A stretch of 64,000 nucleotides of DNA from Thermodesulfobacteriota bacterium (GCA_963675595.2 CAXXLZ010000002.1:4224001-4288000), one strand, 5' to 3'; positions 9,539 to 56,072 are shown, counted from the first letter of the stretch. Made by a program: numbers and translations. The notes: generated by a model from the letters alone, not told the origin.

Positions 9539-9611
9539 GTTTCCTCGATAGCAAAACCGATCTTAGAACGAATTCTATCTCACTTTTCCCGGCGATCACT
9601 CCCATCCACAT

Positions 9612-9628
9612 CCGAAAACTATTTATAC
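9612..9628 (+). promoter_or_regulatory. Archaeal-type BRE+TATA-like motif CCGAAAACTATTTATAC
   Basis: 16-mer identical to 50372-50387 (minus strand); ATG 23 nt after the 16-mer, no RBS. Confidence 0.55.
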
Positions 9629-9650
9629 CCGCGCTTCCCGATCATCCAAT

Positions 9651-10823
9651 ATGGCCGGCGGCGCATTCGATGAAGTCTGGGAACTCCTTTCAGTATTCGA
9701 TATCCCGTACATCTATGACCGCTACGCTGTGGGAGTCGATTTCGTCCTCGCTTTTCTCTTCTTCCTGGGAGTCAGCCAGGTCACTCTCGGCAAGCGTTTC
9801 ACAGGCAAAGGCGGGAGCCTTCTCACTGTCGCCGTATCGCTTCTCTTGTCTGTAGGATTATCTGTTGCTGAATCACGGCTCAGTTTCAGCCTCGCTTCCT
9901 TCGGCCCGATCGCAATCTTCTTCCTTCTCTTCATCGTCGGCTTGGTGCTGTATCAACTCGCCCGGCATCTGGGTTTCCACGCATCGACTGCTTTGTCCCT
10001 CGTGTTCGTTATGACCTATTTCTCGATCCAGGCAGTGTCGCCGTCCATCATGGACTTCGTTCACCAAAGAGCGCCCTGGCTCAGGACCACGCTGTTCTGT
10101 GTCTTCGTGTTCGCTGCTGGAAAGCTCCTCTATTCGATCTTTCATACGATCTTTTCGAAAAGCTCAATCACGTCCCTCGCATCCAAGATTGAAGCAAACC
10201 CTGAATTCACCCGACAGATTGAGCGGGATGTCGAATTCGAGGAACATGAGAACAAATCCTCGAAGAAACAGGAAAAACTCTCCAAGAAAAGCCGGGGAGA
10301 TTCGGAAGATATTCTCCAACGCATAGTATCGGTCCTCAGGATTCTTGAAACAGAAGGAGTAACGCCTTTCGCGGGAAAGAAGATCGCGGACAAATTGGTC
10401 TCCATCGCGGATTCAGAACACCAAATCGAAAAGCGAATGAAACAGCTCGAGTCCGCCAACGCCGATCTCAAGCGAGTCGATGCCGACCATCTCACCCAAC
10501 TCAGAGACCGGATGAGCAGAGCCCAGGGCAAGGAAAAGGAAAGGCTTCAAAGGGAAATCGAACTGGAGAGCGAAAAACTCCGACTTCACCAAGCGGTCGA
10601 AACCCTCGGCCAACGGATTGACGCTTTGATGGAGGAGTTCAAGGCCTCTCTCCGATCAGCAGCCGAACTTATCGCGCGGTCAGCCTATCCTCTGGATTCC
10701 CGGCCATACTTGGAGCGGGCAATCCAGATCGATGAGGAGGTTCGGCGGGAGCTTGACGTGATTCAAGATTTTGAGGATAAGATAGGCAAATTCGCGCGCG
10801 AGGCGAAGAAAAGCGCCAAGTAA
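9651..10823 (+). CDS. Membrane protein: about 5 N-terminal TM helices plus a long C-terminal coiled coil
   Basis: 390-aa ORF with hydrophobic N-half and E/K/R-rich heptad C-half. Confidence 0.8.
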   Translation: MAGGAFDEVWELLSVFDIPYIYDRYAVGVDFVLAFLFFLGVSQVTLGKRFTGKGGSLLTVAVSLLLSVGLSVAESRLSFSLASFGPIAIFFLLFIVGLVLYQLARHLGFHASTALSLVFVMTYFSIQAVSPSIMDFVHQRAPWLRTTLFCVFVFAAGKLLYSIFHTIFSKSSITSLASKIEANPEFTRQIERDVEFEEHENKSSKKQEKLSKKSRGDSEDILQRIVSVLRILETEGVTPFAGKKIADKLVSIADSEHQIEKRMKQLESANADLKRVDADHLTQLRDRMSRAQGKEKERLQREIELESEKLRLHQAVETLGQRIDALMEEFKASLRSAAELIARSAYPLDSRPYLERAIQIDEEVRRELDVIQDFEDKIGKFAREAKKSAK

Positions 10824-11643
10824 GGGATGATTTGACCTTTAGGCAATCAGGATATCGAAAGGCATTCAACGTGTTCTTAAGCCATCATTGGAAGCATATA
10901 CCCATGAATAGACGGGATGTGTCTCTTTCGTGGTCAACCTAACCAATCTAAGCAAAATCATGCAAAAGAGTCATTTGCCTTCAAACTGCACCGTGTTAAA
11001 ATAATTTTCCGATTCAAGTATTCTCATGCCTTAGCCTTCGTTATCCCAAAAACCGCGCGATTCCCTGAATATGGTGCTCATGAAGGTAGATTCTCAGCCA
11101 AATGAAATCCCACAAATAGCCTTCTCGACGAGAACGGCTTTTCAATGGGTCCCGGATTTTAGGAGGGCAAAAGCCTTTGCATTCTAATGGGGCTTGAGAG
11201 CGTTGTCTCGGAACCCATTTGTCGACGAGAAACACCAGCTCCGAGCATTTTGTCTTGGGAGAAGAAGATGCAGTACGGTCTGCAATGGTGACGAATAGCA
11301 GACTATTTTGCTCGATTATAGGCAAGGCCGCCGATCGATGGCGCGCTTTCTGTGCAATATCGGGCCCTCCCCGCCCCTCGTAATTACCACATTTCCCGTG
11401 AAATAAATCTGTTCTTGAATCTGGCCCGCAAGCTATACATAATTTGCAATGCAGAGATTTTTACGACTGCCACACCTGATGAGCTCAAATGTAACATTCC
11501 TGAAAATGTCGAGATCAAATCGCTTTAGGGCAAGAGGGAAAAAGCCTAACTCGGGAAGATTCCGTTTCATAGTGTCCGCATTGCGCACCGAATGGGTTAA
11601 TTCCCACTTTGACCATTAAGGGAGAAGGATATTGACAACATCC

Positions 11644-12489
11644 ATGACAAAAATTGCGGGAAACAAAGGCTCCGGCCCCCCTGGAATCGTCAAAATCCCG
11701 GCCGGCATCCGGGGACTGGATGAGGTCCTCAACGGGGGTGTTCCCAAAGGCGCAACGACGCTTCTCAGCGGCGGGCCGGGAACGGGCAAAACCATGTTAG
11801 GGCTTGAATTCCTTGTCCGGGGGGCCATGGCCGGGCATCCCGGAATCCTGTTGACCTTCGAGGAAACTGAGCTTGCTTTGAAAAACTATGCCGCCGGGTT
11901 TGGGTGGGATCTCGCCGAATTCGAATCCAAAGGGTTTCTGTCCATTGTATCGGCCCGCATCCAACCGGACGCCGTGCTTTCCGGCAATTTCGACCTGCGC
12001 GGCGTCATCGGTATCCTGCGGCAAAAGGCCGATTCCATAAAGGCCGAACGGGTGGTTGTCGATGCCCCGGACGTGTTCCTTCGCCTTCTGGGTGACATCT
12101 CCAAAGAGCGGGCAGAATTGCATCTCTTGCACGAATGGCTGCGGGAGGCCGGGATGACGGCCCTGATGACGGTCAAAAGCCGAACGGACCAAGCCTCGTC
12201 CTCGCAATACGATTTCCTCGATTACATGGCTGATTGCGTGATTCACTTGGACCAGCGGGTTTTGGAACAGGTCACCACACGACGTCTGCGGGTGACCAAG
12301 AACCCCGGCTCCGCGTACGGTCGTAATGAGTATCCGTTCGGCATCACGGACAAAGGAATCTGGATCATTCCCGTAACCCAGGCCGGCCTCGGCGAATGCC
12401 TCTCCAGCGGCGTGGATCAACTGGACGACATTCTGGGCGGATGTTACCGGCGCAACTCCTGTACATTTCCCCGCATTCACCCTGTATGA
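11644..12489 (+). pseudogene. kaiC: KaiC-like ATPase, truncated after the first RecA domain
   Basis: GIRGLDEVLNGGVP, GGPGTGKT, YMADCVIHL, RRLRVTK, NEYPFGI; the second domain breaks off after SSGVDQLDDILGG. Confidence 0.8.
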
Positions 12490-12501
12490 ACCGGCGGCCC
12501 T

Positions 12502-19112: not shown

Positions 19113-19478
19113 CAGGCCGAAATTCCACGGGCGGATTGGGCGTGAATGAAATGCACAAGGGGCGTTCGGGATAAGCCCCGGATACAGGCGCTTATCCCGG
19201 GCGTCACATCCTCATGGGAGTTCCGGAAAGCGGAATCGTTGTTCGTCACGGCATGCCGGAAACGCTATGGACCAAATGGGTTCCGTCTCGGCAGAACAGA
19301 AAATTGGAGGACCGCCAGCCTATCGCGGCGACAATCCTATTCGTGGGACCCGAATGATTCCACTCGGATCTTTTGAGAACAAAACATCTGTCAAGGGAGC
19401 AGCAAACCCGAAGGCACCAGCGTTTGGCATCGTCAAAGGAAAGCATCGCCGAGTCCAACGGATCAAGGACGGAGCCTC

Positions 19479-19940: not shown

Positions 19941-20239
19941 GAGAATATGAATCAACTCAGCAGCCGGACGGAACGAAGAAAAGCCTTTGTCCGAATTGAG
20001 GCATGCCGAGAAAGGTTTTCAAATAGTATTCATAATGGACGACAATTCTTTTGAAATTGTGAAGCCAGGCAAAGAGCCTCTCCACTTTTCAGTGCCGTCT
20101 GTAGGGCCTGTGAGGCCGCTCGTCTCAAGTTCTGTTTTTTTCCACCTCCCTCGTGAGGGGCGATCATTTCCGTGACGCAATAGCAAATTGGAAACCGATC
20201 GAAGGGTCACTGTCGTGACCACTATCGCCGATCATGGCC

Positions 20240-34300: not shown

Positions 34301-36901
34301 AAGCGTCTCAACTACGAGGCGAAACTGGCCGAAGCGTCCGCGGGTCTCCTTTCCGAAAAATCTCCCAACGAGAATATTACGGACGCACTGTCCTGCCTGC
34401 GAAAGGCTGCCGGCGTATCACGATCCTATCTGTTTGAAAACTTTGAAGATACGCACCACGGTCTGTGCATGCGGCTGATTTGTGAGGACTGCGCCCTGGG
34501 AGTGCCGGCTCGCATGGACGACCCGCTCTTCCAGCATGTGCCCTACTCCCATGGTTTCCAGCGATGGCGCGAGATCCTATCGGCCGGCAATGTCATAAAG
34601 GGCGAAGTGGATACTTTCCCCGAGTCCGAACGCATTATGGCGAGACCCCAAGGCATTCGTTCCCTTTTGGCGCTTCCTCTTTGGGTGGGCGGGAAGTGGT
34701 TGGGCTTCATCGGTTTCGATGCAACCGATCCGGCAGGGAATTTGGACGAAGAAGAAATACGCATGCTGAAGACGGGCGCCATGATGATAGGAGGCTATCT
34801 GACCCTGATCCGGACCGAAACGGCCCTCCGACGCGCCAAGCAGCGGGCCGAAAGTCTCAACGAGAGTCTTCGCAATCAAACCTTGCTGGCCGAAGAAATG
34901 GCCGAGCGGGCGGCCAGGGCCAGTTCCGCAAAAAGCGAATTTCTGGCCAACATGAGCCATGAGATCCGCACCCCCATGAACGGGGTGATCGGTATGACGG
35001 GTTTGTTGCTGGATACCGGACTGACGGAGGAACAGCGTCGATACGCCGAAGTGGTGAAATCCAGCGGAGAATCCCTGCTGGCCATTATCAACGACATTTT
35101 GGATTTCTCCAAGATCGAAGCCGGAAAGCTGGACTTGGAGGTGTTGGATTTCAACTTGCAGGACCTCCTAGACGACTTTTCGGCAACCATGGCTTTGCGC
35201 GCGCACCAAAAAGGACTGGAATGGCTTTGCAGTGCGGCCCCGGACGTTCCTCTGTCTCTACGTGGCGATCCGGTGCGACTCAGACAAGTCCTCACCAATC
35301 TCGCGGGCAACGCCGTGAAGTTCACCCACACCGGGGAAGTGGCGGTTCTGGTGTCCACGGCATCACAAAGGGGAGACGACGTCTTGCTCAAGTTCTCAGT
35401 TCGCGACACGGGCATCGGCATACCGGAGAACAAGTTGAGCGGGCTGTTCACCAAGTTTTTCCAGGCGGACGCCTCCACCACCCGCCAATTCGGGGGTACG
35501 GGGCTGGGATTGGCCATTTCCAAACAGTTGGTTCAGATGATGGGTGGGGACATCTGGTTAGAGAGCAGAGAGGGCGAAGGGTCCGAATTCCATTTTACCC
35601 TGCGGTTCGTCAAAGGCGCTCCGGACACGTCTACGGAGTCTCAGGTATGCGACGTCTTGAAGGATGTGCGAACGCTCATTGTGGACGACAATGCCACCAA
35701 TCGAGAAATCCTGATGACCCGGTTGCGCTTTTGGGGGATGCGGCCCGCAGAAGCCGCGGATGGTCCTTCGGCCCTGGAAACGCTCCTGGAGGCCAAAGCA
35801 CAGGGCGATCCCTTTCGTCTAGCGGTGATCGATATGCAGATGCCCGGCATGGCCGGAGAGGAGCTGGCGCAAGCCGTGAAAGCCGATCGTCGCCTTTCAG
35901 ACACGCGTATGGTGATGCTTACTTCCTTGGGAACGCAGGGAGATATCCGTCGCCTGAACAAAATAGGTTCTCATGCCGCTCTCTCCAAGCCCGTGCGACA
36001 TCGTGACCTTCACGGTGTCTTATCTCAGGTGCTTTCAGGCTCCGAACCCCTGGACGGGACCAGCGAAACTGAATTGCAATCCGGTCCGGAACCTACCGAA
36101 CTGTTTTCGGGAAGGAATGTACGAATACTTCTTGCCGAAGACAACTTCACCAATCAGCAAGTGGCCTTGGGTATGCTCAAGAAGTTGGGCCTACAGGCGG
36201 ACGCCGTTGCCGACGGAAACGAGGCTCTCAAGGCGCTATCCTCCTTCGTTTACGATCTCGTACTTCTGGACGTCCAGATGCCCGTGATGGACGGGATCGA
36301 GACCGCGCGAAGGATACGAGACCCGCATTCCGATGTCCTCAATCACCGTGTGCCCATCATCGCCATGACCGCCCATGCCATGAAAGGGGATCGCGAGAAG
36401 TGTCTGCAGGCGGGCATGGACGACTACCTGACGAAACCCATTGTCCTGGGTACACTGGCCGCCAAGCTGCAAATATGGATGGGAGAGACGGAGCGGAGAG
36501 ATAACGGGACGGAGAATTCCGAAACGGCACTCGAGGAACTGCCGGTGTTTGATCGCGTCGGGGCGCTTAAGCGACTTGGGGGCGACGAAAGTCTACTGAA
36601 GACGATCGGTGAAATATTTCTTCAGGATGTGCCGTCCCAGATTCAGAATCTGAAGGAGTGCTTCGACCGAGGAGACACTGAGGAGTTCGGACGTTACGTG
36701 CACAGCATCAAGGGAGCGTCCGCCGGGGTGGGCGGCGAGAGGCTTCGCAACATCGCCGCTGAAATGGAGCAGGCCGCCCGATCGGGATCGTTGGATAAGG
36801 CCGGCTCTCATATGAATGAATTGGAAACGCAGTTTGCGACGCTCAAGGAACTGCTTCAATCCACAATCCTGAAACCAACATCGCAAAAGGGAACGACGTG
36901 A
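31325..36901 (+). CDS. Multi-PAS/GAF hybrid histidine kinase with two receivers and an HPt domain
   Basis: [24 protein letters not shown], two receiver domains, HPt VHSIKGAS. Start uncertain (31289, 31325 or 31379). Confidence 0.93.
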   Translation: MKETKPEPGKPSNSERINMGDTTISGADRRLWDDSDERLHELRVYQAELEMQNEELRAAQEALAESRDRFSALFHQAPVGYVVLDEVGLILEANETFARMVHCPMDGIRGRAFAAFLKEDHSRTFQSRFRALFRNPKGKSMEVELRSGERSLSVQLDASFADSIKAPTSSKASALLLTVSDISDRKRAEEERRYSLSLLEAALESTADGILIVAADGTWSGFNQKFTDMWKIPPWIAKSGDDRRALEHVLSVVADPDEFLATVKEIYGDSHGVSFDTVVMKDGRILERYSQRHRVGDQIVGRVWSFRDITDQKRDRKRLEESLKETQGLLDASRAVLECRGFEEAARRIFDSCREATGAPSGYIALLSDDGEENELVFLESGGLPCSVDPGLPMPVRGLRAEAYSAAEVVYENDFMNSQWVRYMPPGHVNMRNVLFAPIMSDGKAVGVIGLANKPEDFTPEDVRITRALGDMAAIALRRSRAEEDLRRSERLMETILDTIPAPVFYKDVQGVYLGCNRAFQELMGLSKDSILGRTALDIAPPELARRYHEADLGLMEQGEIQVYETEVENALGDRRQVVFHKAPFCDQDGGVMGIVGALLDITERQQAEQRLKSAHERTKALMDSVQAGIILVRGEDRVIVEANPAAARLMNVPMEELIGSSAKKYLCPKEADQCPVFDMAHDLDTSEDELRTRDGRKIPILKTVTRIEINGKKHLLESFVDISDLKQTEEELRRSREQFMLAVNGAQDGIWDWDLRDGTLFLSPKWKEMIGYRDEEITNDFSSFEDRVHPEDKPRVMQALDRYLKRQTPVYSIDFRFRHRDGSYRWILARGEAIFDESGNPLRMAGSHTDITQRKQVEEALRRANEVLVRSPAVAFTWKNAEDWPVEYASENVEQLFGWKAGDFVSGSVGYARTIHPDDLPRVWEEVFRAAADPQTYSVCHEPYRIVARDGTTKWVQDMTSVRRDKNGKILAYEGILLDITDIKNTQEELNKRLNYEAKLAEASAGLLSEKSPNENITDALSCLRKAAGVSRSYLFENFEDTHHGLCMRLICEDCALGVPARMDDPLFQHVPYSHGFQRWREILSAGNVIKGEVDTFPESERIMARPQGIRSLLALPLWVGGKWLGFIGFDATDPAGNLDEEEIRMLKTGAMMIGGYLTLIRTETALRRAKQRAESLNESLRNQTLLAEEMAERAARASSAKSEFLANMSHEIRTPMNGVIGMTGLLLDTGLTEEQRRYAEVVKSSGESLLAIINDILDFSKIEAGKLDLEVLDFNLQDLLDDFSATMALRAHQKGLEWLCSAAPDVPLSLRGDPVRLRQVLTNLAGNAVKFTHTGEVAVLVSTASQRGDDVLLKFSVRDTGIGIPENKLSGLFTKFFQADASTTRQFGGTGLGLAISKQLVQMMGGDIWLESREGEGSEFHFTLRFVKGAPDTSTESQVCDVLKDVRTLIVDDNATNREILMTRLRFWGMRPAEAADGPSALETLLEAKAQGDPFRLAVIDMQMPGMAGEELAQAVKADRRLSDTRMVMLTSLGTQGDIRRLNKIGSHAALSKPVRHRDLHGVLSQVLSGSEPLDGTSETELQSGPEPTELFSGRNVRILLAEDNFTNQQVALGMLKKLGLQADAVADGNEALKALSSFVYDLVLLDVQMPVMDGIETARRIRDPHSDVLNHRVPIIAMTAHAMKGDREKCLQAGMDDYLTKPIVLGTLAAKLQIWMGETERRDNGTENSETALEELPVFDRVGALKRLGGDESLLKTIGEIFLQDVPSQIQNLKECFDRGDTEEFGRYVHSIKGASAGVGGERLRNIAAEMEQAARSGSLDKAGSHMNELETQFATLKELLQSTILKPTSQKGTT

Positions 36902-37287: not shown

Positions 37288-37333
37288 TGCTTAAAGGACG
37301 GATCAAGACCTCATTCAACGGAGTCAAAGGAGT

Positions 37334-37879: not shown

Positions 37880-37885
37880 GCGGAC

Positions 37886-45336: not shown

Positions 45337-47215
45337 TTGACGTGTGCAGCCATATCATCAGCCTGAAGATTTGCCTCTCTCCAGGGCCGTCCTAAGGGGC
45401 GAGGTCTCAAGGGATGTCACTGTGATTATCAGGCATGAATCCGGCGAGGAGCGTTGGGTTTCGGCGAACGCAGCCCCGATAGCCGATTCCGACGGGAGTA
45501 TTCGGGCCGGTATCGTGATCTTTCACGACATCACGGATCGTGTTCAGGCTGAAGCCGCTCTCAGGGAAAGTGAAGAGAGGTTTCGGACCCTCGTGGAAGA
45601 ATCTCCCCTAGCAATATCTTTAATAGCCAATGACGGCTGTTACAAATACGTAAACCCTCAGTTTCGGGAGACGTTCGGTTATACGATCGACGATGTCCCC
45701 ACCGGACGGGAATGGTTCAGGAAAGCCTTCCCTGACGAGACCTATCGGCGCCAAGTGGTCAAGACATGGGTCCAAGACCTGAAGCAAACCGGTATGGGAC
45801 AATCTAGACCACGTACCTACATTGTCACGTGTAAAGACGGATCCCGGAGAGAAATTTATTTCAGGCCGGTCACCATGCAGAACCTTGACCAGTTCGTGAT
45901 ATACGAGGACATCACCGAACGCAAGCGGGCCGAAGAGGAAAGGTTACGGCTTGAAGCCCAACTCCGTCAGGCGCAGAAAATGGAGGCACTCGGTACGCTG
46001 GCCGGGGGTATCGCGCATGACTTCAATAACATACTGGCGGCCATGATAGGCTACACCGAACTTGCGGTTGAAGGTCTTTCCAAAGGCTTGCCCGCAAGAG
46101 AACAACTGGCGCAAGTCTTGAAATCGGGAGATCGAGCCAAGGAATTGGTTCGCCAAATCCTGAGTTTCAGCAGAGCGACCGATCAGGAAAGGCGGCCCGC
46201 CGAAGTCCTTCCTATTGTGGAAGAAGCGCTGAAGCTGCTAAGAGCATCCATTCCCACCACCATTGATATAGAGCAGGAGGCGGAAGGGGTTTTAGGGACC
46301 GTGCTGGCGGACCCGACACAAATCCACCAACTGGTCATGAACCTGTGCACCAATGCCGCCCAAGCCATGCGAGATCGGGGGGGAGTCATGAGAGTGCGGC
46401 TTGAGAGGATCGAACTGGATGAGGATGCGGCGCGCAAATATGTCGAGTTAAGCCCGGGAGCGTATTTAAAGCTGAGCGTTACCGACACTGGAGAGGGTAT
46501 CGAGGAAAGCATACTGGATCGCATATTCGAGCCGTTTTTCACGACCAAAGAAACCGGACAAGGCACGGGTATGGGCCTTGCAGTAGTTCATGGGATCGTG
46601 AAAGCTCACTGCGGAAGCATAGAGGTGCAAAACAGGGCCGGTCGCGGCTGTACATTCTACGTTTACCTGCCGCTTTTTGAAAGCGAGGCGGAAAAGAGTG
46701 ATCCGCCGGAAACGATTCGTATCATAGCCGGCACTGGACATATCCTTTTCGTAGACGATGAAGAGTCCATAGCAGACTTGGGGAGGCAGATGTTGGAGCG
46801 ATTGGGCTACAAGGTCACCGCTTGCACCTCAAGTCGCCAGGCATTGGAAACGTTCAAAATCGACCCCACCCAGTTTGATATCGTGATCTCTGACCAGACC
46901 ATGCCACAAATGACCGGTTTGAGACTAGCCGGGGAGTTGATGAGCATAAAGCCGAATATACCTATTATCATCTGTACGGGTTACAGCACGGATATATCAC
47001 CCGAAAAAGCACAGGAATTCGGCGTTAGGCACGTCATAATGAAGCCCTATGCGTTCTGCGAGGTCGCCGCTTTGATCAGGAAAGTGATCGATGATAAGTC
47101 AGCAGGTTTTCCTTGAGCACGCGGATGAGGGACTAGGCTACATCCTCCCTTGCCCTCCGACTCTCGGACGAAAGAATAAGAACTCTCGTTTCCAGGAAAC
47201 CGATCACCTTAACCG

Positions 47216-47638
47216 TCAGAAGAAACCAAACAGCCCCCGGTCCTTCTTCTCCTGCATCGCGCCTCTGCGCTCTCTGGCCGACGCCGCGATGCCGGATAGC
47301 TGTTCCAATGACTTCCCGAACCTGCTCGAAAAGACCCAGCCTTCCCGGTAACCGTACCGCTTGTTGAAGCGGGAAACGTGGTCGATGAGCCCCATTCGCC
47401 GCATCTTGCTTCGGACGGTTTCGAGGATTCTCGGTGAGAAATCGTATTTGCCGCACAAAGGCTGAAGAGTGTTCAAGAATTCATGTTCAGCGTACTTGAG
47501 TTCGATGAAGATTGCGAGAAAAACTCGCTGATGGTTCTTGTTGGCTGGGAATAGGATAGCCGCGAGTTCATCCAGGTCCCGAGTCCTCGCGATCTTGTTA
47601 TGGCTGAGTTCGATTTTTGTGTTGACGATTGCGATCAC
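47216..47638 (-). CDS. Hypothetical protein, probable winged helix
   Basis: ETVRSKMRRMGLIDHVSRF...GWVFS pattern; overlaps the stop codon of the upstream gene. Start uncertain. Confidence 0.7.
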   Translation of the reverse strand: MIAIVNTKIELSHNKIARTRDLDELAAILFPANKNHQRVFLAIFIELKYAEHEFLNTLQPLCGKYDFSPRILETVRSKMRRMGLIDHVSRFNKRYGYREGWVFSSRFGKSLEQLSGIAASARERRGAMQEKKDRGLFGFF

Positions 47639-48006
47639 CTCGACCGGGCCAGGTGCTGGAGAACGACCGGCTTACCGTAACCATTCTCTTTCAGGGCTTT
47701 CTTCCTCAGTTCGACTCGTTGTTTTGCGATCTCAAGAGCCATCGTCCTGAGTTCTGTCCCCAATAGGCTCTCCACCCAATAGATGGTGGTGTATGCAGAA
47801 ACGTAGATATCTCCCAGAAGCCGTTGGAACCGCCACCTGATTCCCTGGCGGGAGAGTCCGAAGATCCGCTCAATCTTGTCGCCGTAATTTCTGCGCAAAA
47901 CGAACCGCTTCAGGCCGTCTTCCTTCAGCTCAATCTTGAGATCACTATCTTCGATCAACATCTTGAGCTTTTCAATAAATTCCTTGTCCTTTTCAGTCAG
48001 TTTCAT
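47635..48006 (-). CDS. Hypothetical protein, possible HTH
   Basis: KIERIFGLSRQGIRWRFQRL; overlaps both neighbouring genes. Confidence 0.7.
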   Translation of the reverse strand: MKLTEKDKEFIEKLKMLIEDSDLKIELKEDGLKRFVLRRNYGDKIERIFGLSRQGIRWRFQRLLGDIYVSAYTTIYWVESLLGTELRTMALEIAKQRVELRKKALKENGYGKPVVLQHLARSR

Positions 48007-48808
48007 AATAGGGCGGCTCGATTTCGATATCCGAGCCGTATTGTGTCACCTGCACTTCGCAATCCTGAAGCAGGAAAATCAGAGCCACAAATCGCATCGC
48101 CCGATCTCTCCGGGCATTATCGATCAGGGGGTCAATCCTGGAAAACATGATTTGTCGATACCTATGAACCGAATCCAGGATATGGCGTCTGTACCGGGAC
48201 AGCCCAGGAAGATTCCCAGTCAGGGAGAACTCCTCGCCCCAAACTCCCGCGTCAAAACCCATGAAACCCGACAATGCTTCAGTAAACCCGGGCAAACGAT
48301 CAAGCCGTGGTTCCTCCAGTAACGCCAACCCGCCCGACCGCCCTTCTCGACGGGCGAGCCTCATCATCTCTCTTCGCCTTCTTGCCTTGGCTCTCGATTC
48401 AGCCATTCGTTGCCGGAAATAAACCTTGTCGAAGACCCGTTCATCGAACAAGAACCGGGACGGCACGGTCTTCCCACAAGAAGCGCACGCATAATGAAGA
48501 CTCCGCCTGACCAGCTTCGCTCCGCAACAGCCGCTCCTTTGAAACACCACTGTGGGGTCCAGTTCATGGTCGCTCACACAGGCCGCCGAACCGGGTTCAA
48601 GCATCCGCAGGTTTTCGCCGCAAACAGGACACGGATGATTCGCCAGCATAACGTCATAGTAGTAGTCTCGGGCCGACGCCTTGTATTGAGCAACGCCGAA
48701 AACAAACTCCCCGATAATCCGGCCGAGGGCTTCCTCCGGCTCTTCCATGTCCAAAATTATCGCTGGGCGTTCGCTGTAGTGATCCGGCTCCAGGGTTTCG
48801 CATTCCAT
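47993..48808 (-). CDS. Zn-ribbon protein with ScpA/kleisin-like C-terminal winged helix
   Basis: CPVC, CVSDH, SGCCG, CASC; C-terminus RRDRAMRFVALIFLLQDCEVQVTQYGSDIEI. Confidence 0.65.
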   Translation of the reverse strand: MECETLEPDHYSERPAIILDMEEPEEALGRIIGEFVFGVAQYKASARDYYYDVMLANHPCPVCGENLRMLEPGSAACVSDHELDPTVVFQRSGCCGAKLVRRSLHYACASCGKTVPSRFLFDERVFDKVYFRQRMAESRAKARRRREMMRLARREGRSGGLALLEEPRLDRLPGFTEALSGFMGFDAGVWGEEFSLTGNLPGLSRYRRHILDSVHRYRQIMFSRIDPLIDNARRDRAMRFVALIFLLQDCEVQVTQYGSDIEIEPPYYETD

Positions 48809-48830
48809 CTATCGCGGAAAGCAAAGCATT

Positions 48831-48880
48831 GATATAAACCTTTCGCTCCCACGCCGCAGAATTCGGAAAAGTTTATATAC
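48831..48880. promoter_or_regulatory. Back-to-back archaeal-type BRE+TATA-like motifs
   Basis: Minus 48845-48831 CGAAAGG-TTTATATC with ATG 22 nt downstream; plus 48864-48880 CGGAAAAG-TTTATATAC. Confidence 0.55.
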
Positions 48881-48913
48881 ACCAGGGCCTTACCGAGTCC
48901 CGAGGTGATACCG

Positions 48914-49060
48914 ATGCCAAGACCCTATAAGTGCCCATATTGCGGCGCAACCCAAAGCCACTGGAAAGGATACAGGCCCCTTGCCCAGGGAAAAGTCAGA
49001 CTCCGGATGTGCACCAAGTGCCACCGGAAGTTCACGACTCGGGTTAAGATCGCCGAATAA
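48914..49060 (+). CDS. 48-aa zinc-ribbon protein (below the ORF-track cutoff)
   Basis: MPRPYKCPYCGATQSHWKGYRPLAQGKVRLRMCTKCHRKFTTRVKIAE; GAGGTGAT RBS at 48902-48909. Confidence 0.75.
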   Translation: MPRPYKCPYCGATQSHWKGYRPLAQGKVRLRMCTKCHRKFTTRVKIAE

Positions 49061-49075
49061 CCACCCGACGGACCT

Positions 49076-50350
49076 TCAATGAAGACCGCCGAACGACCCG
49101 GCACCAAATCCTTCTCTTGACAAGAACCGGCTGAGGGTTTCCTTGGGAAGCGATCTCGATATTTCTCTTGTCTGGCCGTACCTGCCGCGTGATATCAGCC
49201 TGGCGTTGATCAGTCCGTAGAGGTCAAGGGAACCGATAATGTCCGAGAACCTTCGTTGCGTCAGCGGCCTGACCCGTTCCAACTCGCAGAAATTGGCGTA
49301 TCGATCATAGGCCTCGCCTGTAGTGACCCGTTTCGAAGTCTTGGCCAACAGATCGTAGCAGGAAAGAAGCGCAAGTTTCTGCTGCGGCGCGAGAGCCCGA
49401 ACCATTTCTTCGGTCTTGTCCATCTCCAATCTGTGCTCAGCCAGATCCACGATTTCTTCGGACAGCCTGCCGCCGGTTTCCTGTGCCACTTTGGCCGACT
49501 TTGATAGAAGTTCCACCGCCTTCCTCGCATCACCGGTTTCCCGCGACGCCAGGGCCGCGATCTTTCGAACAGCAGCTTCGTCCACCTTTGACTTGTCCAA
49601 CGCCTTTTCCACCCGAAGATTCAGAATTTCGATCAAATCCAAGGCGTTATAGGGTTCAAAGAGCATGTCCGTCTTCTTGAGAACGCTCAGAATACGCGGA
49701 TCCAGCATCTTGTCCCAGTTCAGTTTGTTCGTGACCATAATGAGAACCAACCGGCAGGGAATCTTTCTCGGAAGGGTCTTTCCGAGGAAGGTAATAAACT
49801 CGTCCGCATTGGGCTTGATGTTATCCGCCTCATCAATCAGGAGGCACAAGAAACCCTGAAATCGGTTCAGCTCTTCGATGATGCGTTCCTGCATCTGATC
49901 AATGGGAATGCCTTTCCTGTAAGTACGAATCGATTCATTGAGTGCTCTTGCAAGTTCATTCAACGCTCCGAAAGAGGACCTGGGCGAGGTCAAGTCCACG
50001 TATCTGTACTGAAACCCGACGGACTGCGTTCGGCAATATTCCTGGAACGTCGAAAGGACGTGAATGAGGGAAACCGTTTTCCCTGAACCCGTAGGCCCGA
50101 AGATCAGCAGAGAACTCGGATGATCGCCGTCCAGGATCGGAGTCAGATGACAGACGATGCGCTTAAGCTGCTCCTCCCTGATATTCCGATCAAAAATCTC
50201 CTTCAGAACCGAAGTTCGCTCTTCCTCTGGCAACTTCTCGTCGTCCAGATAGTTGGGGTTCAAAATAAGGCGATGATTCTTCTGTGAGTCATGCAATGTG
50301 CGGATGAATTGCAAGGAAGCTTCGGAATGATCTCCACCGGACATTTTCAA
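49076..50350 (-). CDS. cdc6: Orc1/Cdc6-family replication initiator (AAA+ plus winged helix)
   Basis: Walker A GPTGSGKT, Walker B LLIDEAD, LDPRILS, FEPYNA, GDARKAVELL; C-terminal TTGEAYDRY...LTQRRFSDIIGSLDLYGLINARLISRGRYGQTREI. Confidence 0.9.
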   Translation of the reverse strand: MKMSGGDHSEASLQFIRTLHDSQKNHRLILNPNYLDDEKLPEEERTSVLKEIFDRNIREEQLKRIVCHLTPILDGDHPSSLLIFGPTGSGKTVSLIHVLSTFQEYCRTQSVGFQYRYVDLTSPRSSFGALNELARALNESIRTYRKGIPIDQMQERIIEELNRFQGFLCLLIDEADNIKPNADEFITFLGKTLPRKIPCRLVLIMVTNKLNWDKMLDPRILSVLKKTDMLFEPYNALDLIEILNLRVEKALDKSKVDEAAVRKIAALASRETGDARKAVELLSKSAKVAQETGGRLSEEIVDLAEHRLEMDKTEEMVRALAPQQKLALLSCYDLLAKTSKRVTTGEAYDRYANFCELERVRPLTQRRFSDIIGSLDLYGLINARLISRGRYGQTREISRSLPKETLSRFLSREGFGAGSFGGLH

Positions 50351-50370
50351 GCGATTCTTCTACAGGACAT

Positions 50371-50387
50371 CTATAAATAGTTTTCGG
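50371..50387 (-). promoter_or_regulatory. Archaeal-type BRE+TATA-like motif CCGAAAACTATTTATAG upstream of cdc6
   Basis: 16-mer identical to 9612-9627; 21-27 nt before the candidate starts. Confidence 0.55.
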
Positions 50388-50427
50388 TTAAATGCATTGT
50401 CGTCACCTGACAGTGAACCGGATGTTA

Positions 50428-50650
50428 AGTGTGGGAAAGTTTCTCGTGGAACTTTCAGTTTCAGTTTTTAGTGATGTTTTCTTTTCCTTATTATTATTTA
50501 TTTCTATATAGAAACTATATAATATAATATAAAAGCCGCGAAAATATAGAAAAGTTTTTAAATGAAAACACTTCAGAATAGTAACAAGAAACAAAAATAA
50601 CACACCCAACAAAAGGTTTTCAAGTTTTCCACGCGACATTTACACACACT
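50428..50650. other. Putative replication origin: AT-rich core flanked by inverted ORB-like boxes
   Basis: 24-bp imperfect inverted repeat (19/24 identical) at 50428-50451 and 50627-50650 around a very AT-rich 175-bp core, directly upstream of cdc6. Confidence 0.65.
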
Positions 50651-50861
50651 CTAAAAGCTGATTTTGAATCACTATTGAGTGACAACGTGGAGGCCATGAC
50701 GTCCCTCAAAGACCTCGATCACCGACGGTATTTCAAGAAAACCCGAAACAATCGGCCATTCGACAGTACAAGAGCCACGTTTCCACCGGAAATTTACTCG
50801 GGTTCCTGAAGCCATTCGGCGTCAATCCCTCCATTCCTCTGAGGAAATTTCCCATACCAAC

Positions 50862-51365
50862 CTACATCTCGTCCCAGCCGATATACTGAGCCGGACTTTC
50901 CCCCACCCTTTCGACGATCTTGGGATATTTTTCTCCCGGAGCCGCTTTTCCGATCTCGATCACCCGGATTTCGTGCCACCAATCATCTCCGAAATCGAAC
51001 CAATAGAAGAAGTGATCGCCCTCTTTCAGGTTCAGAGAGCCGATCTTGGTTCTTGAAACGTCTCCTGCAGGCGGAGGAGTTCCCATCAGGTCTCCCTCCA
51101 TTTCGATGGGCAGCACATACCTCGCCGCCTCGGGATCCTGCGGTATTTTGGAGAGCTGAAACTCGTAGAGGTGCTCGTCTTCACGATCAAAGGCTCTGAA
51201 GATCGCCCGGTGAAGCTGCCCCAGGGTATGCTTGCCTCGAACTTGAATGACACGGAATACCGCCGGGTTCTTTGCGATGAAGGTCTTGCTCATGGGTCCG
51301 TTTGCAATGGAGACCTTTAAAGCGTACAGATTTTCCGCCCGCTTTCCTCCGGAACTCGTCGCCAT
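50862..51365 (-). CDS. Plasmid pRiA4b ORF-3 family protein
   Basis: TLGQLHRAIFRAFD...HLYEF...FYWFDFGDDWWHEI...YPKIVERVGESPAQY. Confidence 0.85.
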   Translation of the reverse strand: MATSSGGKRAENLYALKVSIANGPMSKTFIAKNPAVFRVIQVRGKHTLGQLHRAIFRAFDREDEHLYEFQLSKIPQDPEAARYVLPIEMEGDLMGTPPPAGDVSRTKIGSLNLKEGDHFFYWFDFGDDWWHEIRVIEIGKAAPGEKYPKIVERVGESPAQYIGWDEM

Positions 51366-51465
51366 TCACTTCCTCCTTGGTGATCCGAACATCAAAAAAC
51401 TTATAAAGGAATGAACTTACCGGTATCCAACGGAATCGGCAAGAACCGATTCGGAGGTGCACACC

Positions 51466-51909
51466 ATGGCAATGGAAACAAATTCGGCCACATCCGGCAC
51501 ACCATCAAGCGGCTGTCCCACTTGGGACGGAATGGGCATATCCGGCGATCTGCCGCCCTTTTTCAAGCCCACCGAAGACATGAAACGAAACGGCTTCGAA
51601 GTGATCTTTCTGTCCGACGGTCCCAGGAGAGAGACCGAGAACAACTTCGACAAGAACTCGAAAGACCTCTGGTTCGATATCTCCTACCAGGACAAGGAAA
51701 TGACCTGGACCATCAGCCAGATCAGCCTGCTTTCCGAACTGAAGAAGCATTCACCGCTGAAGGAGAAGATCCTCAGGATACGCCTTGTTCCGGTGACCGA
51801 AGAATTCAGGAAAAAGCGGCCGAAGTACAGAGGCAGTGAGCGATACCAGGTTGAAGAAATCCGAGAAAACCGATTCGACAAGATCGACGTGGAAGAACTG
51901 ACGGTATAG
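51466..51909 (+). CDS. Hypothetical protein, possibly an OB-fold ssDNA-binding protein
   Basis: GGAGGTG RBS; beta-rich aromatic core (LWFDISY, MTWTISQ) and acidic tail; upstream CAAAAAA-CTTATAAAG. The ORF is well supported; the fold is speculative. Confidence 0.65.
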   Translation: MAMETNSATSGTPSSGCPTWDGMGISGDLPPFFKPTEDMKRNGFEVIFLSDGPRRETENNFDKNSKDLWFDISYQDKEMTWTISQISLLSELKKHSPLKEKILRIRLVPVTEEFRKKRPKYRGSERYQVEEIRENRFDKIDVEELTV

Positions 51910-52048
51910 ATATTCTTTCTTCTTTTTGTTTCAGCCGATCGGAGATAAGACGTGCGAAACAGACTCAAGTAATGGACGGAAGGAAAGACGGTCTGAACCG
52001 CCGACAGAACGAAAGCAGGCTGTAATCTCAGGGGACTTTATCTGAAGC

Positions 52049-52744
52049 TCAGCCCAAGGTCGTGAGACCATGGAGGATCGCGTATTTGGTCAACTGGGAC
52101 ATTCGCCTGGTTTTCAGCTTCTTCACAATATTCCTGCGGTGATTTTCCACCGTATTCACGCTGACACAGAGTATGGCCGCCATCTCCGCACTGGTCTTCC
52201 CCTCGGTCATACCCTGGAGAACTTCCTTTTCTCTCGAGGTCAACGAAGGAAGCGACCGGTGTCCGTTTCCATTGCCTAGCGCAAGCGCTTGAAACGCCTC
52301 AGTCATCGTTTCAGCGGATTTGCGGCAAAGATACATCCGGCCTTCGAGCACCGAACGAACAGCCGCGACCAGCTCATGCAATCCGCTTTGACTGAGCACA
52401 TACCCCATGGCCCCAGCGACGAGCATTTTGAACATGGGGTCCCATTCCGAATCCGGCGCGACTCCGACCACCCGGGTTTTTCGAAACCGATGCGTGATTT
52501 GGCGCGCGGTCTCGATACCGTTCAAACCCTTCATGGAAGTGTTCACGATCACCACGTCCGAGGGCGTATTGGACAGCAGTTTAAGTGCTTCATGACCTTC
52601 CAAAGCTTCACCCGAAACCTCGAAATCAGGAACAGAGCCCATCGCGTGCCGCAATCCTTCGAGAACCATCCTGTGGTTGTCCACCAGGAATATCCGCTTT
52701 TTCTCGAGTTCTTCCCTTGCTCCGCCTTGCCCCGGTTGCTCCAT
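52049..52744 (-). CDS. NarL/LuxR-family response regulator with atypical receiver
   Basis: LuxR HTH LTSREKEVLQ...VSVNTVENHRRNIVKKL; receiver has VDNH, IVNTSM, YVLSQ. Confidence 0.88.
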   Translation of the reverse strand: MEQPGQGGAREELEKKRIFLVDNHRMVLEGLRHAMGSVPDFEVSGEALEGHEALKLLSNTPSDVVIVNTSMKGLNGIETARQITHRFRKTRVVGVAPDSEWDPMFKMLVAGAMGYVLSQSGLHELVAAVRSVLEGRMYLCRKSAETMTEAFQALALGNGNGHRSLPSLTSREKEVLQGMTEGKTSAEMAAILCVSVNTVENHRRNIVKKLKTRRMSQLTKYAILHGLTTLG

Positions 52745-53417
52745 GATCACCCTCCGTAACAGACGATCCATTGTTCAATCGGAAATCCGGCAGAAGATAC
52801 CGAGACCTCCCGAAAGCAAAATGTTGGATTCAGAGAAAAAGCATCCTATAAAAAGATGAAACCGTGCGCAATCGTGATAATCATGAGGTTTTCTCATGAA
52901 ATTCATGAGTTAAATCTGTGGAAATCGCTAGACCAGCTAATGGATTTTATGATATGGAGCAGCGAAAAAAGAGGGGTGCAGGGCGGCCATCGGGTCAACC
53001 CATTACGATCTTTAGACTTTTGGGCGGGCATAGTCTCCGGAGAATGATAACACGGCCGTTACAACGTCGGACATGGACACGACGCGTGGGAAGAACAATC
53101 AAGATCCCTGCAGCGGGGGGATGAAAGCCGAGTCAATCGCAGGGAAATAGTTGATAGCCGCTCAAACCGTCCTATGAATGCAAACACCACCTTCGCCGTG
53201 GACATCTCCGCCGAAAGTGGATTCCGGTGTCGCGAGACTCTGAGACCGGCAGGTGCCCGGGACTACCCTCCGGTGAGCCTGTGCAAGGGAAGCTTCGAGC
53301 CTGCGAACGTGATCAATGACAGACCGCCAACGATCGGTCGGAACATTGGGCGGGTTCGGCGTTTTCGGGGGCGAGATGAAAGGCCTCTTCGCCCGTCTCC
53401 CTAAAGCCCGTTCCGCC

Positions 53418-53870
53418 TCATTTTGTTCCTTTTGAAAGCCTGATCGTTCGAGTAACCGTCTCGTGGGTATCATGGGAGATTCTTCCGTCGGCAAGCATCT
53501 CGTCGGCAAGGTCTTGTGCAGCGGCAAGATCAAGACGCCCGTCTTCAAGCCGATCCCGAAGCTCGTCCTTCATTTCCATGGCCTTTCCATCACGTCGTTT
53601 CAGGATTTGATGATCCTCGGAAAGATCGATCAGGCGATCCATCGACAGGTCCACGGAATCCAGGTCTTCTTCGAACTGCTCTCTTCCCTTCTCGGAGAGA
53701 TAGCGATGAAATTTGTCTTCCCATTCCGGCTGTGAGATGAGTCCTTTGTCGTAAAGGTCATCGTACACTTCGAACTTCCGGTCGGCGCTCAGCTCCTCGG
53801 CCTCCAAAGGCTCTTCCGGCTCAGTTTCGAAGGACAACAACTTCTTCCCCGCCTCCATGAACCAATCCAT
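53418..53870 (-). CDS. Acidic hypothetical protein
   Basis: ORF is open to 54014; GGAGGT RBS favours the ATG at 53870. Confidence 0.6.
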   Translation of the reverse strand: MDWFMEAGKKLLSFETEPEEPLEAEELSADRKFEVYDDLYDKGLISQPEWEDKFHRYLSEKGREQFEEDLDSVDLSMDRLIDLSEDHQILKRRDGKAMEMKDELRDRLEDGRLDLAAAQDLADEMLADGRISHDTHETVTRTIRLSKGTK

Positions 53871-54085
53871 GAGGCCCTCGACCTCCTGATCTTCCTCAAC
53901 AGAATCACAATCGAATTCCTCTTCCCCTCGTTCCCAATCCTTTCTCACGGCAAACCTCCCTTTTCCAATAGAAGTGCTCGGAAAGAAATTTTCGTGTTTT
54001 GATTTTTTTCCCACACGTTTTCGATCGAGGGATCACTGGAGGAGTAAGGCAGGACGAAAACCACCCCAAACAAAAGGAGAAAGCC

Positions 54086-54277
54086 ATGAGATTTTCACGT
54101 CACCCCTTCACTGGAATGCTTCAGGTGGACTTCGGGCTTCCGCTTAGAAGAGACGATTTCAATCTGATTCACGATGTCAACGGAAAGACTGTCAGAAGGA
54201 TAGACGACTTCAACTTGGTTAAGGATACGCTCGACCGAACCGTCGAAATATGGAAGCCCAAAATGTACAATGACTGA
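54086..54277 (+). CDS. Small hypothetical protein with internal DDFNL repeat
   Basis: AAGGAG RBS; RRDDFNLIHD and RIDDFNLVKD. Confidence 0.6.
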   Translation: MRFSRHPFTGMLQVDFGLPLRRDDFNLIHDVNGKTVRRIDDFNLVKDTLDRTVEIWKPKMYND

Positions 54278-54348
54278 TCCCGCTTTAAAAACTGGTCGCA
54301 GCTTCCGCCGATAATTCTATCTCGGCATGAGATAACCGCTCCCTTACC

Positions 54349-54366
54349 GAGCCCCTTCGGGGGCTC
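54349..54366 (+). terminator. GC hairpin with C(UUCG)G loop, possible terminator
   Basis: GAGCCCC-TTCG-GGGGCTC; weak U tract. Confidence 0.35.
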
Positions 54367-54797
54367 ATCTTCATTTCCTTCCAGCCAAAATTCCCACAAG
54401 CCCTGTCGCGGAATAGCTTCGCTTTCGAGACGTCTCGTATCAGCTTCCCTGTCCTTGTTAATCGAGCCGTACCTGAAGAAACCGGTCGGTCGTCCACCGC
54501 AAAATGGTCAAGGTGTATAACGATCTCAGCGGCGTTGAAAAAAGGCGGCATTCGCGGGATATTGGGGGTGCTCAGGAAAACTTCGAACCTTCAAGCCAAC
54601 ACAAGCCTGCCGACTGCCGTCATAAAGGCCCCGCAGAGCCCCTGTTTGAGAAAGATGCCGCATAATATCGGAGGACCCAAGTTGAAGCTTTTCGTAATGG
54701 CTTACAAACCCATCGCTCTAGTCAATGACACTGATGATATACTGACAAAGTCGTATAACCTTTTTTCATCGGATAGGTAGCATTAAGGAGAATAAAA

Positions 54798-55685
54798 GTG
54801 TCCCTATTCACCATACTCAATAATATAGTCAATCACCCTTTTAACAAATACAATAAGGCTGCGGCGATAGCCATATTTGTAGGTTGGCAAATCGGTAGCA
54901 GATTAGTTCCAGGTGATGTTATTTTTGAATGGGTAAATAATTCCAAACTTGTGGCCAGAACAGGTGAAATTGTTGTTACCGGTAATATTTACTGTGGTCT
55001 TCTTGAATTTCAAGATATGGGTTTCTTGCTTCACGTTTTGAGAGAAAGAGATATTTTTGTTGATATTGGAGCTAATGTTGGAGCCTACACTATTCTGGCA
55101 AGTGCAGCTATTGGTGCAAGCTCCTATTGCTTTGAACCAGTCCCATCAACATACCGTAGGCTAATGACAAATATTAGGCTAAACGCATTAGATAAAAAAG
55201 TTATTTCATTAAATATGGCACTTGGAAATGCAAGAAAACAATTGCTATTTTCTTCAGATGAAAGTGGCACCAGCCATGTCTTGGCAGATAATGAGAAAAC
55301 TAAGAACGAAATTACTGTAAATTGTTCCACTCTTGATGAGGAGCTGAAAGGTGACCCATTTCTAATAAAGATTGATGTGGAAGGATATGAAACTCCAGTA
55401 CTGGAAGGTGCACAACATTCACTTAAGAATCCCAATCTTTGTGGAGTGATTATTGAATTGAACGATTCAGGACAAAGATACGGTTTTGATGAACAAACGA
55501 TATTGCAAATGATGTTTGATCATGGATTTAAAACCTATTCATATTGTCCTTTTGAAAGAAAGCTAAGAATTTTGGGAGGTAAGAACGAATATGAAGGGAA
55601 TACAATTTTTGTAAAGAATATCGATCGCGTCCTAAATAGAATCAATAAAGCTCCAAAGTTTGCTGTTCATGGGGTGTCAATATAG
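54798..55685 (+). CDS. FkbM-family SAM-dependent methyltransferase (AT-rich cargo)
   Basis: FVDIGANVGAYT, FEPVP, LIKIDVEGYE. Confidence 0.9.
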   Translation: MSLFTILNNIVNHPFNKYNKAAAIAIFVGWQIGSRLVPGDVIFEWVNNSKLVARTGEIVVTGNIYCGLLEFQDMGFLLHVLRERDIFVDIGANVGAYTILASAAIGASSYCFEPVPSTYRRLMTNIRLNALDKKVISLNMALGNARKQLLFSSDESGTSHVLADNEKTKNEITVNCSTLDEELKGDPFLIKIDVEGYETPVLEGAQHSLKNPNLCGVIIELNDSGQRYGFDEQTILQMMFDHGFKTYSYCPFERKLRILGGKNEYEGNTIFVKNIDRVLNRINKAPKFAVHGVSI

Positions 55686-55807
55686 GTGGATGCATAATCA
55701 AATTAGCTCTACCAGGACTTTAAGGCTTTACGAAGAGGGCAGTGCTCAACTTTAAATCGTGCCGCCCGGTAATTACGGGACGTCGACCATTCCTCCTCCG
55801 ACGACAA

Positions 55808-55999
55808 TTAGAATTCCCGAAGGTCTCCAACGTCGTTCGCAGGCCGGCGTTCTGCTCGATCCGGTCGGTGCAAGGAATTCCGCTCCGAACTCTGCCTGCA
55901 CCAGAACAAATGGGCGTTACCGCGCTTCCGTTCCCGCCACCAGTCCGAAAGGGTCTCATCTTCCTCAAAAGGATGCGTAATCCGAAGTTCCTGTTTCAT
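55808..55999 (-). CDS. Short hypothetical protein, possibly a degraded backbone gene
   Basis: ATG 22 nt after CGACAGG-TTTAAATA (56036-56022). Confidence 0.4.
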   Translation of the reverse strand: MKQELRITHPFEEDETLSDWWRERKRGNAHLFWCRQSSERNSLHRPDRAERRPANDVGDLREF

Positions 56000-56072
56000 G
56001 GCCACCATTACGGCACGGTGGTATTTAAACCTGTCGAAAAGGGCTCACGAAGAGCCCTCTTCCAACCTACAC

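Follow-up and report, generated by a model that had tools for sequence, protein, structure and literature searches.

Archaeal-design promoter-like boxes head the backbone genes of an Orc1-encoding integrative element family in Desulfobacterota-type bacteria

Why should an element integrated in a bacterial chromosome carry, ahead of its backbone genes, short boxes that look like the promoters of archaea? The question is raised by a 64,000-nucleotide (nt) stretch of DNA from a Thermodesulfobacteriota bacterium (GCA_963675595.2, CAXXLZ010000002.1:4224001-4288000; hereafter the window, to which all coordinates refer unless another sequence is named). The window covers most of a ~75.6-kb element integrated in a tRNA-Phe gene. 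An initial annotation, made from the sequence alone, had noted six genes of the element's backbone preceded by motifs resembling the B recognition element (BRE) and TATA box of archaea, and had proposed that these are either relics of an archaeal origin or sites still read by an element-encoded factor. We find that the boxes are real, conserved, element specific, promoter-like, and archaeal in design. Each consists of a CGAAA-type BRE and an 8-bp TATA box, and together they head at least seven backbone transcription units.

Two of the boxes share a 16-mer, which occurs in exact form at 9612-9627 (+) before the gene p390 and at 50372-50387 (-) before orc1, just as the initial annotation had it. 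These were still the only two matches in the window when up to two mismatches were allowed; shuffled sequences gave an expectation of 0.03, and none of 100 shuffles reached two. The remaining four boxes, recovered like the 16-mers with the matrix described below, also lie where they had been placed, each facing its adjacent gene: at 48831-48845 (-) before p271; at 48865-48879 (+) before the gene for a 48-amino-acid (aa) zinc-ribbon protein, back to back with the p271 box; at 51393-51407 (+) before p147; and at 56022-56036 (-) before p66, a 63-aa open reading frame (ORF). A seventh box lies beyond the window end (extended coordinate 70430, minus strand), 23 nt ahead of the ATG of p184, a 184-aa gene. 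The 8-bp A/T-rich TATA box is present in all six window sites and in the seventh, and CGAAA is the start of 8 of the 11 sites in the first training set. By eye, the TATA box of 51393-51407 may also serve the divergent PRiA4_ORF3 gene in the opposite direction. A tandem repeat of ~13 nt in nearly three copies (9505-9540, by eye) is seen 70 to 110 nt upstream of the p390 box.

The spacing between box and gene is regular. Measured between the final base of the TATA box and the start codon, it amounts to 23 nt for p390 (ATG 9651), 22 nt for p271 (ATG 48808), 22 nt for p66 (ATG 55999), and 21 or 27 nt for orc1 (TTG 50350 or ATG 50344, respectively), confirming that in these four genes a start codon follows the box within 21 to 27 nt and no Shine-Dalgarno sequence (SD) intervenes. 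The other two genes are SD led, as had been reported: the zinc-ribbon gene has a gap of 34 nt to ATG 48914, with GAGGTGAT at 48902-48909, the first base of which lies 22 nt past the TATA box, and p147 has a gap of 58 nt to ATG 51466, with GGAGGTG at 51453-51459. The recurring distance, from the TATA box to either the ATG (in leaderless genes) or the first SD base, is 21 to 24 nt.

The element is present four times in the host genome (6.79 Mb in three contigs, 98% complete), with three of the copies on contig 2 and the fourth on contig 1; among them, Orc1 is 97.9 to 100% identical and p271 78 to 100% identical. The 16-mer has exactly eight occurrences in this genome, before p390 and before orc1 in each of the four copies, and is invariant in all eight while the bases touching its ends vary between copies. 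The suggestion that the 16-mer ties the two halves of the backbone together across the intervening cargo is therefore borne out in every copy.

Specificity to the element was measured with two matrices, the first spanning 15 nt (7 nt of BRE and 8 nt of TATA) with sites taken by coordinates, the second built from 14 sites solely from other genomes and metagenome contigs. The four elements make up 388,720 bp, or 5.7% of the genome. With the second matrix, 20 matches of at least 18 bits fall inside the elements versus 6 outside (density ratio, ~55-fold), and at 20 bits or more the counts are 11 inside and 1 outside (~181-fold); the comparison of motif frequency in backbone and host DNA, proposed as a check in the initial annotation, thus shows enrichment in the element. 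Gene-associated matches in the copy covered by the window are the six sites above plus that at 70430 (-). The earlier impression that the motif is not found before cargo or host genes holds at the matrix level: between 11300 and 47200 there is no gene-associated box, the weaker matches at 11010 (-) and 20915 (-) having no ORF downstream, and none occurs in the host flank 1-5900.

Placement relative to genes follows the same division. All 20 unique element sites scoring at least 17 bits with the first matrix have an ATG-initiated ORF 5 to 79 nt downstream, nine of them at 21 to 24 nt and four at 12 to 15 nt, the others including orc1 (27 nt), the zinc-ribbon gene (34 nt), and p147 (58 nt); outside the elements this applies to one of eight sites, at 45 nt. 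Of the 25 outside matches scoring at least 16 bits, none is followed by an ORF that starts at 21 to 24 nt. Since the boxes stand at the heads of gene strings, their placement is promoter-like. The strong outside matches are located at C2:3712224, C2:3960300, C2:4170960, C3:139157, C3:140372, and C1:1504391, and three outside matches cluster within ~1.2 kb around C2:3712224-3713389; these might mark remnants or other elements of the same kind.

Box and spacing are also kept before orthologues in related elements, a further check that the initial annotation had put forward, and this applies to the zinc-ribbon, p271, and p390-like genes. A box of at least 15 bits precedes the zinc-ribbon gene in 8 of 9 loci, or 6 of 7 when near-identical pairs from the same genome are counted once, and GAGGTGAT, where present at these loci, starts 21 to 23 nt past the TATA box (by eye). 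The p390-like genes, whose proteins share 24 to 26% identity, have the box in 4/4 loci with a gap of 23 nt over unrelated spacers. In a relative with an Orc1 63 to 64% identical to that of the window, the zinc-ribbon and p271 genes diverge from a single TATA box that has inverted BRE-like elements on both sides. This shared-TATA site (7637-7658 in the relative, a metagenome-assembled genome [MAG] of Desulfarculia) looks like a compact two-way version of the back-to-back boxes at 48831-48879. A second relative has a separate box before each of three genes of the region. The gap is 36 nt for the zinc-ribbon gene, which has GAGGTGAT, 22 nt for an inserted lipoprotein-like gene, and 23 nt for p271, counted to its conserved start.

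To resolve the fine structure, 16 unique sites of leaderless geometry were aligned on the ATG. The AT fraction is 0.9 to 1.0 at positions -30 to -24; positions -35 and -34 are A rich; an AT bump at -12 to -10 sits beside GC-rich positions -14 and -13; and a pyrimidine occupies -1 in 13 of the 16. In the published archaeal layout, an 8-bp A/T-rich TATA box is centered at about -27 and an A-rich BRE lies near -33; closer to the start come a proximal A/T element near -10 and then pyrimidine/purine at -1/+1, and SDs take the form GGDGRD (PMC5316973). For haloarchaea, CGAAA has been proposed as the BRE (PMC4983044). The published design supports the BRE and TATA likeness that had been noted. Compared with the core promoters of Thermococcus and Haloferax, the boxes have in common the 8-bp A/T box, the abutting A-rich or CGAAA element, the 22 to 23 nt to the inferred start, the pyrimidine at -1, the AT patch near -11, and SDs of the GGTGA kind; they differ in that their carrier is a bacterium in which no TBP or TFIIB domain was detected.

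Genuine archaeal replicons served as controls. In the Thermococcus barophilus plasmid pTBMP1 (positive control), 14 of 37 gene-upstream regions scored above the plasmid's own 95th-percentile null with the first matrix, and in 8 of these 14 a distance of 30 to 38 nt separates the match from the annotated start, an arrangement shared with the zinc-ribbon gene. A Haloarcula plasmid gave 13 matches of at least 9 bits (maximum, 13.0), of which a single one precedes an annotated start by no more than 120 nt; this plasmid gave no useful signal, the probable reason being that haloarchaeal TATA boxes are shorter. Separately, pTBMP1 positions 33628-34521 are annotated as transcription initiation factor IIB, a precedent for a mobile element with a basal factor.

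One part of the archaeal argument did not stand. GAGGTG(AT)-type SDs had been regarded as typical of archaeal expression, but they are complementary to the 3' end of the host's own bacterial 16S rRNA, and since GAGGTGAT pairs with that end it is not diagnostic of archaeal expression. That the host is a bacterium is clear from its 16S: the rRNA operon scores 1630 bits on the bacterial small-subunit model versus 1077 bits on the archaeal one, and at the class level a MAG titled Desulfarculia bacterium is among its relatives.

The boxes share the backbone with a replication module that is itself of archaeal type. orc1 (49076-50350, minus strand) encodes an Orc1/Cdc6-family initiator with an AAA+ domain, a lid, and a Cdc6_C winged helix (Pfam AAA_22, Cdc6_lid, and Cdc6_C; TIGR02928, 257.4 bits versus a cutoff of 181.3), and its structure matches are to Orc1 of Sulfolobus (E 3e-52) and Aeropyrum (E 1.7e-51). 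Next to it, a putative origin at 50428-50650 consists of 24-nt inverted repeats, 79% complementary, around a 175-nt AT-rich stretch; the repeat core recurs in direct orientation at 50331-50348, where it overlaps the orc1 start, and at 50780-50797. This arrangement of repeats and AT-rich stretch beside orc1 recurs in relatives, which have the same repeat core plus an additional repeat placed after the TATA-like box and ahead of the orc1 start, suggesting autoregulation. From its sequence, the layout is that of an archaeal origin with predicted initiator-binding repeats, which we take to resemble origin recognition boxes (ORBs). The MCM helicase model, by comparison, found only weak generic AAA+ matches in the host genome (best, 35.6 bits), and comparable weak matches were seen in all 14 control genomes, bacteria included.

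Relatives of this Orc1 show where the element belongs. Among 8000 scored candidates, 787 were related at E 0.001 or better, the best 120 of them being 61 to 93% identical, plus one partial sequence at 98%; the four relatives with an organism name among the matches listed all come from Thermodesulfobacteriota bacteria or from delta proteobacterium NaphS2. The distribution of orc1 is patchy and multicopy: 2 of 60 relative genomes have it, in two copies each, and among 400 further genomes sampled within the phylum it occurs in 3, of which one holds four copies and another gave a weak match (29%). In PLSDB, 427 plasmid records match Orc1, all below 60% identity, and the 25 best of these are archaeal and 26 to 31% identical, too low for the bacterial clade to have been imported recently from any of the archaeal plasmids sampled. 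The four copies in the host are one part of a family of integrative elements in Desulfobacterota-type bacteria with an archaeal-type replication module. Like the archaeal Orc1 plasmids (haloarchaeal, Methanohalobium, and pTBMP1), these elements have Orc1 beside an AT-rich stretch with inverted repeats, one repeat lying over its own start; unlike them, they have an Orc1 only distantly related to the plasmid proteins (at the identities just given, among the records listed), no MCM partner that we could find, and a location at a bacterial tRNA in bacterial chromosomes, in multiple copies and with accessory genes of bacterial type.

The integration itself is of a familiar bacterial kind. The tRNA-Phe gene (5880-5955, plus strand) ends in a 45-nt attL (5911-5955), the same 45 nt recur as attR at extended coordinates 81483-81527, and a tyrosine integrase adjoins the tRNA, so that the element has both the integrase and the terminal direct repeats of a tRNA 3' part by which tRNA-integrated islands are recognized. 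The integrase gene (6002-8768, minus strand; C-terminal part 6002-6421, N-terminal part 7995-8768) matches positions 75-167 and 8-58 of the Pfam Phage_integrase profile, plus a SAM-like domain. A 1551-bp insertion sequence (6477-8027) interrupts it; this sequence encodes a 503-aa protein without a Pfam match and has 12 further full-length copies of at least 99.7% identity in the genome; the element copy in the window is probably immobile for this reason. No relaxase or type IV secretion set was identified, although no systematic search was made, the one trace being a weak TrwB-like match inside a HerA-like ATPase. The element resembles bacterial tRNA-targeting islands in its integrase beside a tRNA, its 45-nt end repeats, its variable cargo between conserved modules, and its accessory genes of the RadC/DUF2958/DUF3150/DUF1257 type, and differs from them in that its replication module and promoter design are archaeal type.

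What, then, are the boxes for? The interpretation we favor, tentatively and at a confidence that stops just short of even, is that they are backbone promoters of archaeal design within a bacterial integrative element, kept by selection and read by the host polymerase together with an element factor. An archaeal plasmid or virus would have been the joint source of the design and the Orc1 module. Selection would have kept it since the boxes still drive backbone expression in the bacterial host, a view suggested by the conservation of box and spacing over unrelated spacers. Transcription would start ~22 to 23 nt after the TATA box, where an archaeal initiation complex would start, as the fixed gap to the ATG or SD implies. 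The reader would be the host RNA polymerase steered by an element-encoded protein, a guess made because the known readers are absent; candidates are the family-conserved 48-aa zinc-ribbon protein, p271, p123, p140, and p147. The other half of the original proposal, that the boxes are relics of archaeal origin, fits poorly, because they are conserved across a radiation of elements whose named carriers are all Desulfobacterota-type bacteria.

A broader version of this interpretation holds that the element family runs archaeal-design transcription units in bacteria, with a start 22 to 23 nt past the box, leaderless or SD-first mRNAs, and a factor not recognizable as TBP, TFB, or sigma, alongside an Orc1/ORB-type replicon without MCM; in its bolder variant the elements would be cross-domain shuttles expressed in archaeal partners. 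We regard this as possible, with the balance leaning against it.

Several results weigh against backbone promoters served by an element factor. A six-frame search with Pfam PF00352 and PF00382 (E ≤ 0.1) found no TBP or TFIIB domain in four carrier genomes, the host and three others, but did give matches in the archaeal control genomes, and no sigma-70 region 2 was found inside the four elements. Searches for a hidden counterpart gave little. The model of p271, considered as a TFB-like factor (predicted local distance difference test [pLDDT], 82), had no Foldseek match at E 0.001 and a weak likeness to the C-terminal domain of kleisins (ScpA/Scc1), the best rows being kleisin C-terminal winged helices (E 0.013, 67 residues). 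PRiA4_ORF3, considered as a TBP-like fold, gave a model (pLDDT, 87.7) that matches 2i1s with a Z score of 15.9, with no TBP among the rows listed; p184 had no usable match in the protein atlas. The sequencing runs that contain this DNA number six, from two studies, and none is recorded as RNA. In most relatives orc1 itself has a TATA-like box with a poorer BRE and a gap of 31 to 58 nt, amid initiator-type repeats, and over all relatives a gap of 21 to 24 nt is found at 3 of the 17 sites of at least 15 bits. The SD-led genes are explained equally well by a bacterial reading in which the TATA box acts like a -10 element. The four copies are paralogous, so that independent support comes from about four gene families plus the relatives, and the second matrix is only partly independent, its metagenome sites having first been picked with a matrix that included the window sites.

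Not supported as a TBP-like fold, PRiA4_ORF3 offers a lead of another sort. Its model also aligns with the human mini-SNAPc subunit on the U6 promoter element (7xur_B; Z score, 9.8; root mean square deviation, 4.4; 140 aligned), the rows after it being ubiquitin-like folds with Z scores of 6 or less. On the strength of this modeled likeness the PRiA4_ORF3 family, which is widespread in unrelated bacteria, may bind DNA.

The main rival in our ranking, unlikely on balance yet to be taken seriously, is that the box is a -10-like element for the host's sigma-70, with a start ~7 nt downstream, CGAAA as the site of an element regulator, and SD-less leaders of 15 to 16 nt. The host has nine sigma-70-family region-2 loci including a full-length primary sigma. 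The gaps of 34 and 58 nt of the SD-led genes fit a normal bacterial leader, the match of GAGGTGAT to the host 16S is what this rival would expect, and the orc1 of one relative is preceded by AGGAGG, 8 nt ahead of the ATG, and lies ~34 nt from the box. The boxes themselves fit it less well. No -35/-10 pair was called at any of them: a sigma-70 scan of 47000-57000, which takes in five of the six sites, gave 10 matches versus 6.7 ± 2.2 expected, none at a box, and at the p390 site a pair was judged absent by eye only. By eye, too, the boxes are without the final T of the -10 hexamer. A sigma-70 start would leave without reason the fixed gap of 22 to 23 nt, which is kept over unrelated spacers and before proteins ~25% identical; it explains neither the SD-less 15-nt leaders nor the start of the zinc-ribbon SD 21 to 23 nt past the TATA box. 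An arrangement of the MotA type, with the box at -30 and a sigma-70 -10 element at -12 to -7, was considered as well, and no consistent -10 could be seen by eye in the spacers.

A TATA-like box dedicated to mobile-element genes is also known from phage T4. Its late promoters have a TATA-like -10 box that is read by a phage sigma-like protein, with the start a few nt after the box and a variable distance to the start codon. The element resembles them in an A/T-rich 8-bp box without a -35, specific to its own genes, and differs from them in the gap fixed at 21 to 24 nt, in the conserved CGAAA abutting the box, and in that no sigma-like gene was recognized.

We consider it improbable that the boxes work in an archaeal host only, the elements shuttling between domains and integrating passively in Desulfobacterota. 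That the promoter design, Orc1, and the origin layout are all archaeal speaks for such a life cycle, as do the failure to find an MCM-like helicase or TBP/TFB in the bacterium and the broken integrase of the window copy. Yet the organism-named relatives among the 120 listed Orc1 matches are bacterial in four of four cases, and the closest plasmid Orc1 among the archaeal records listed is as distant as stated above. The att site is 45 nt of the bacterial host's own tRNA-Phe, one box heads a string of typical bacterial mobile-element genes (RadC, DUF2958, DUF3150, and DUF1257), and a box in a relative heads a gene with a lipoprotein signal of bacterial style (by eye).

More improbable still is that the box is no promoter at all, being instead a site at which an element protein binds for silencing, partition, or replication control. 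In its favor, the 16-mer is invariant at two loci in four copies, Orc1-type repeats crowd the upstream region of orc1, and p271 ends in a winged helix. Against it, 20 of 20 strong element sites are oriented to a nearby start, the gap is fixed to the start codon or SD, and each box heads a gene string. Chance, or an assembly chimera of archaeal and bacterial DNA, may be dismissed as negligible: short A/T-rich motifs are common in intergenic DNA and CheckM-type contamination stands at 2.43%, but the shuffles never gave two 16-mers, the four copies, with their att repeats, are distributed over two contigs (4.7 and 1.8 Mb), host-wide insertion sequences are found within the element, as are group II introns, and relatives of the element are found in a single-contig chromosome of 4.8 Mb.

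The gene content around the boxes follows the modular plan. p390 (9651-10823, plus strand) encodes a 390-aa membrane and coiled-coil protein of no family. Between it and p140 lies ~36 kb of variable cargo (11300-47200) made up of signaling genes, including those for a KaiC-like ATPase, a CheB/CheR-PAS protein, a methyl-accepting chemotaxis protein, five large PAS/GAF histidine kinases, and receiver proteins, together with an IS110. Positions 12487-36787 are in parts 82 to 88% identical in DNA to the chromosomal region C2:3103613-3128404, indicating either that cargo has been exchanged with this host lineage or that the C2 region is another island. The second half of the backbone opens with the p271-p123-p140 string (47216-48808, minus strand), which neighbors orc1 in relatives too; p271 (47993-48808, minus strand; 83 relatives) has four invariant zinc-ribbon-like cysteine pairs, a long helix, and the C-terminal winged helix. 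On the plus strand, the zinc-ribbon unit, SD and gene (48914-49060), extends over 48902-49060. Beyond orc1 and the origin, the gene for the PRiA4_ORF3-family protein (50862-51365, minus strand) diverges from p147, which with its SD spans 51453-51909 (plus strand; gene, 51466-51909). The backbone further includes a LuxR-type response regulator, an FkbM-type methyltransferase, and p66 (55808-55999, minus strand).

From 56073 to 64000 the window holds the distal part of a long minus-strand gene string, with DUF3150, DUF1257, and an AAA ATPase; the string, headed by p184 past the window end, also includes DUF2958, RadC, a HerA-like ATPase, and a PD-(D/E)XK nuclease. The AAA ATPase gene is interrupted by two tandem, near-identical group II introns (58096-60656 and 60657-63217), each copy with a domain V-VI match and a 620-aa ORF, and in the other three element copies this gene aligns as if it held one group II intron only. 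When the nine backbone proteins of no known family were compared with NCBIfam and PHROGs, eight had no match at E ≤ 0.01, and p390 had one subthreshold match (14.3 bits versus a cutoff of 190).

Searches of the available literature yielded no report of Orc1/Cdc6 elements in Desulfobacterota, nor of bacterial mobile elements with archaeal-type promoters. Both the type of promoter and the type of initiator are already known; what is new is to find them conserved as the control system of the backbone in a bacterial integrative-element family. Promoter architecture is among the sharpest dividing lines between bacteria and archaea, and here a family of elements maintains, apparently by selection, archaeal-design promoters together with an archaeal-type initiator and origin, in hosts that lack the known machinery for reading such promoters. 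If archaeal geometry governs the firing of the boxes in the bacterium, this would be a new kind of system, implying either that bacterial RNA polymerase can be recruited in a new way or that a TBP/TFB analogue is hidden there, and it would offer a tractable case of a replicon and its expression signals crossing the domain boundary together. If they are read as -10 elements instead, they would show how archaeal promoters can be co-opted unchanged.

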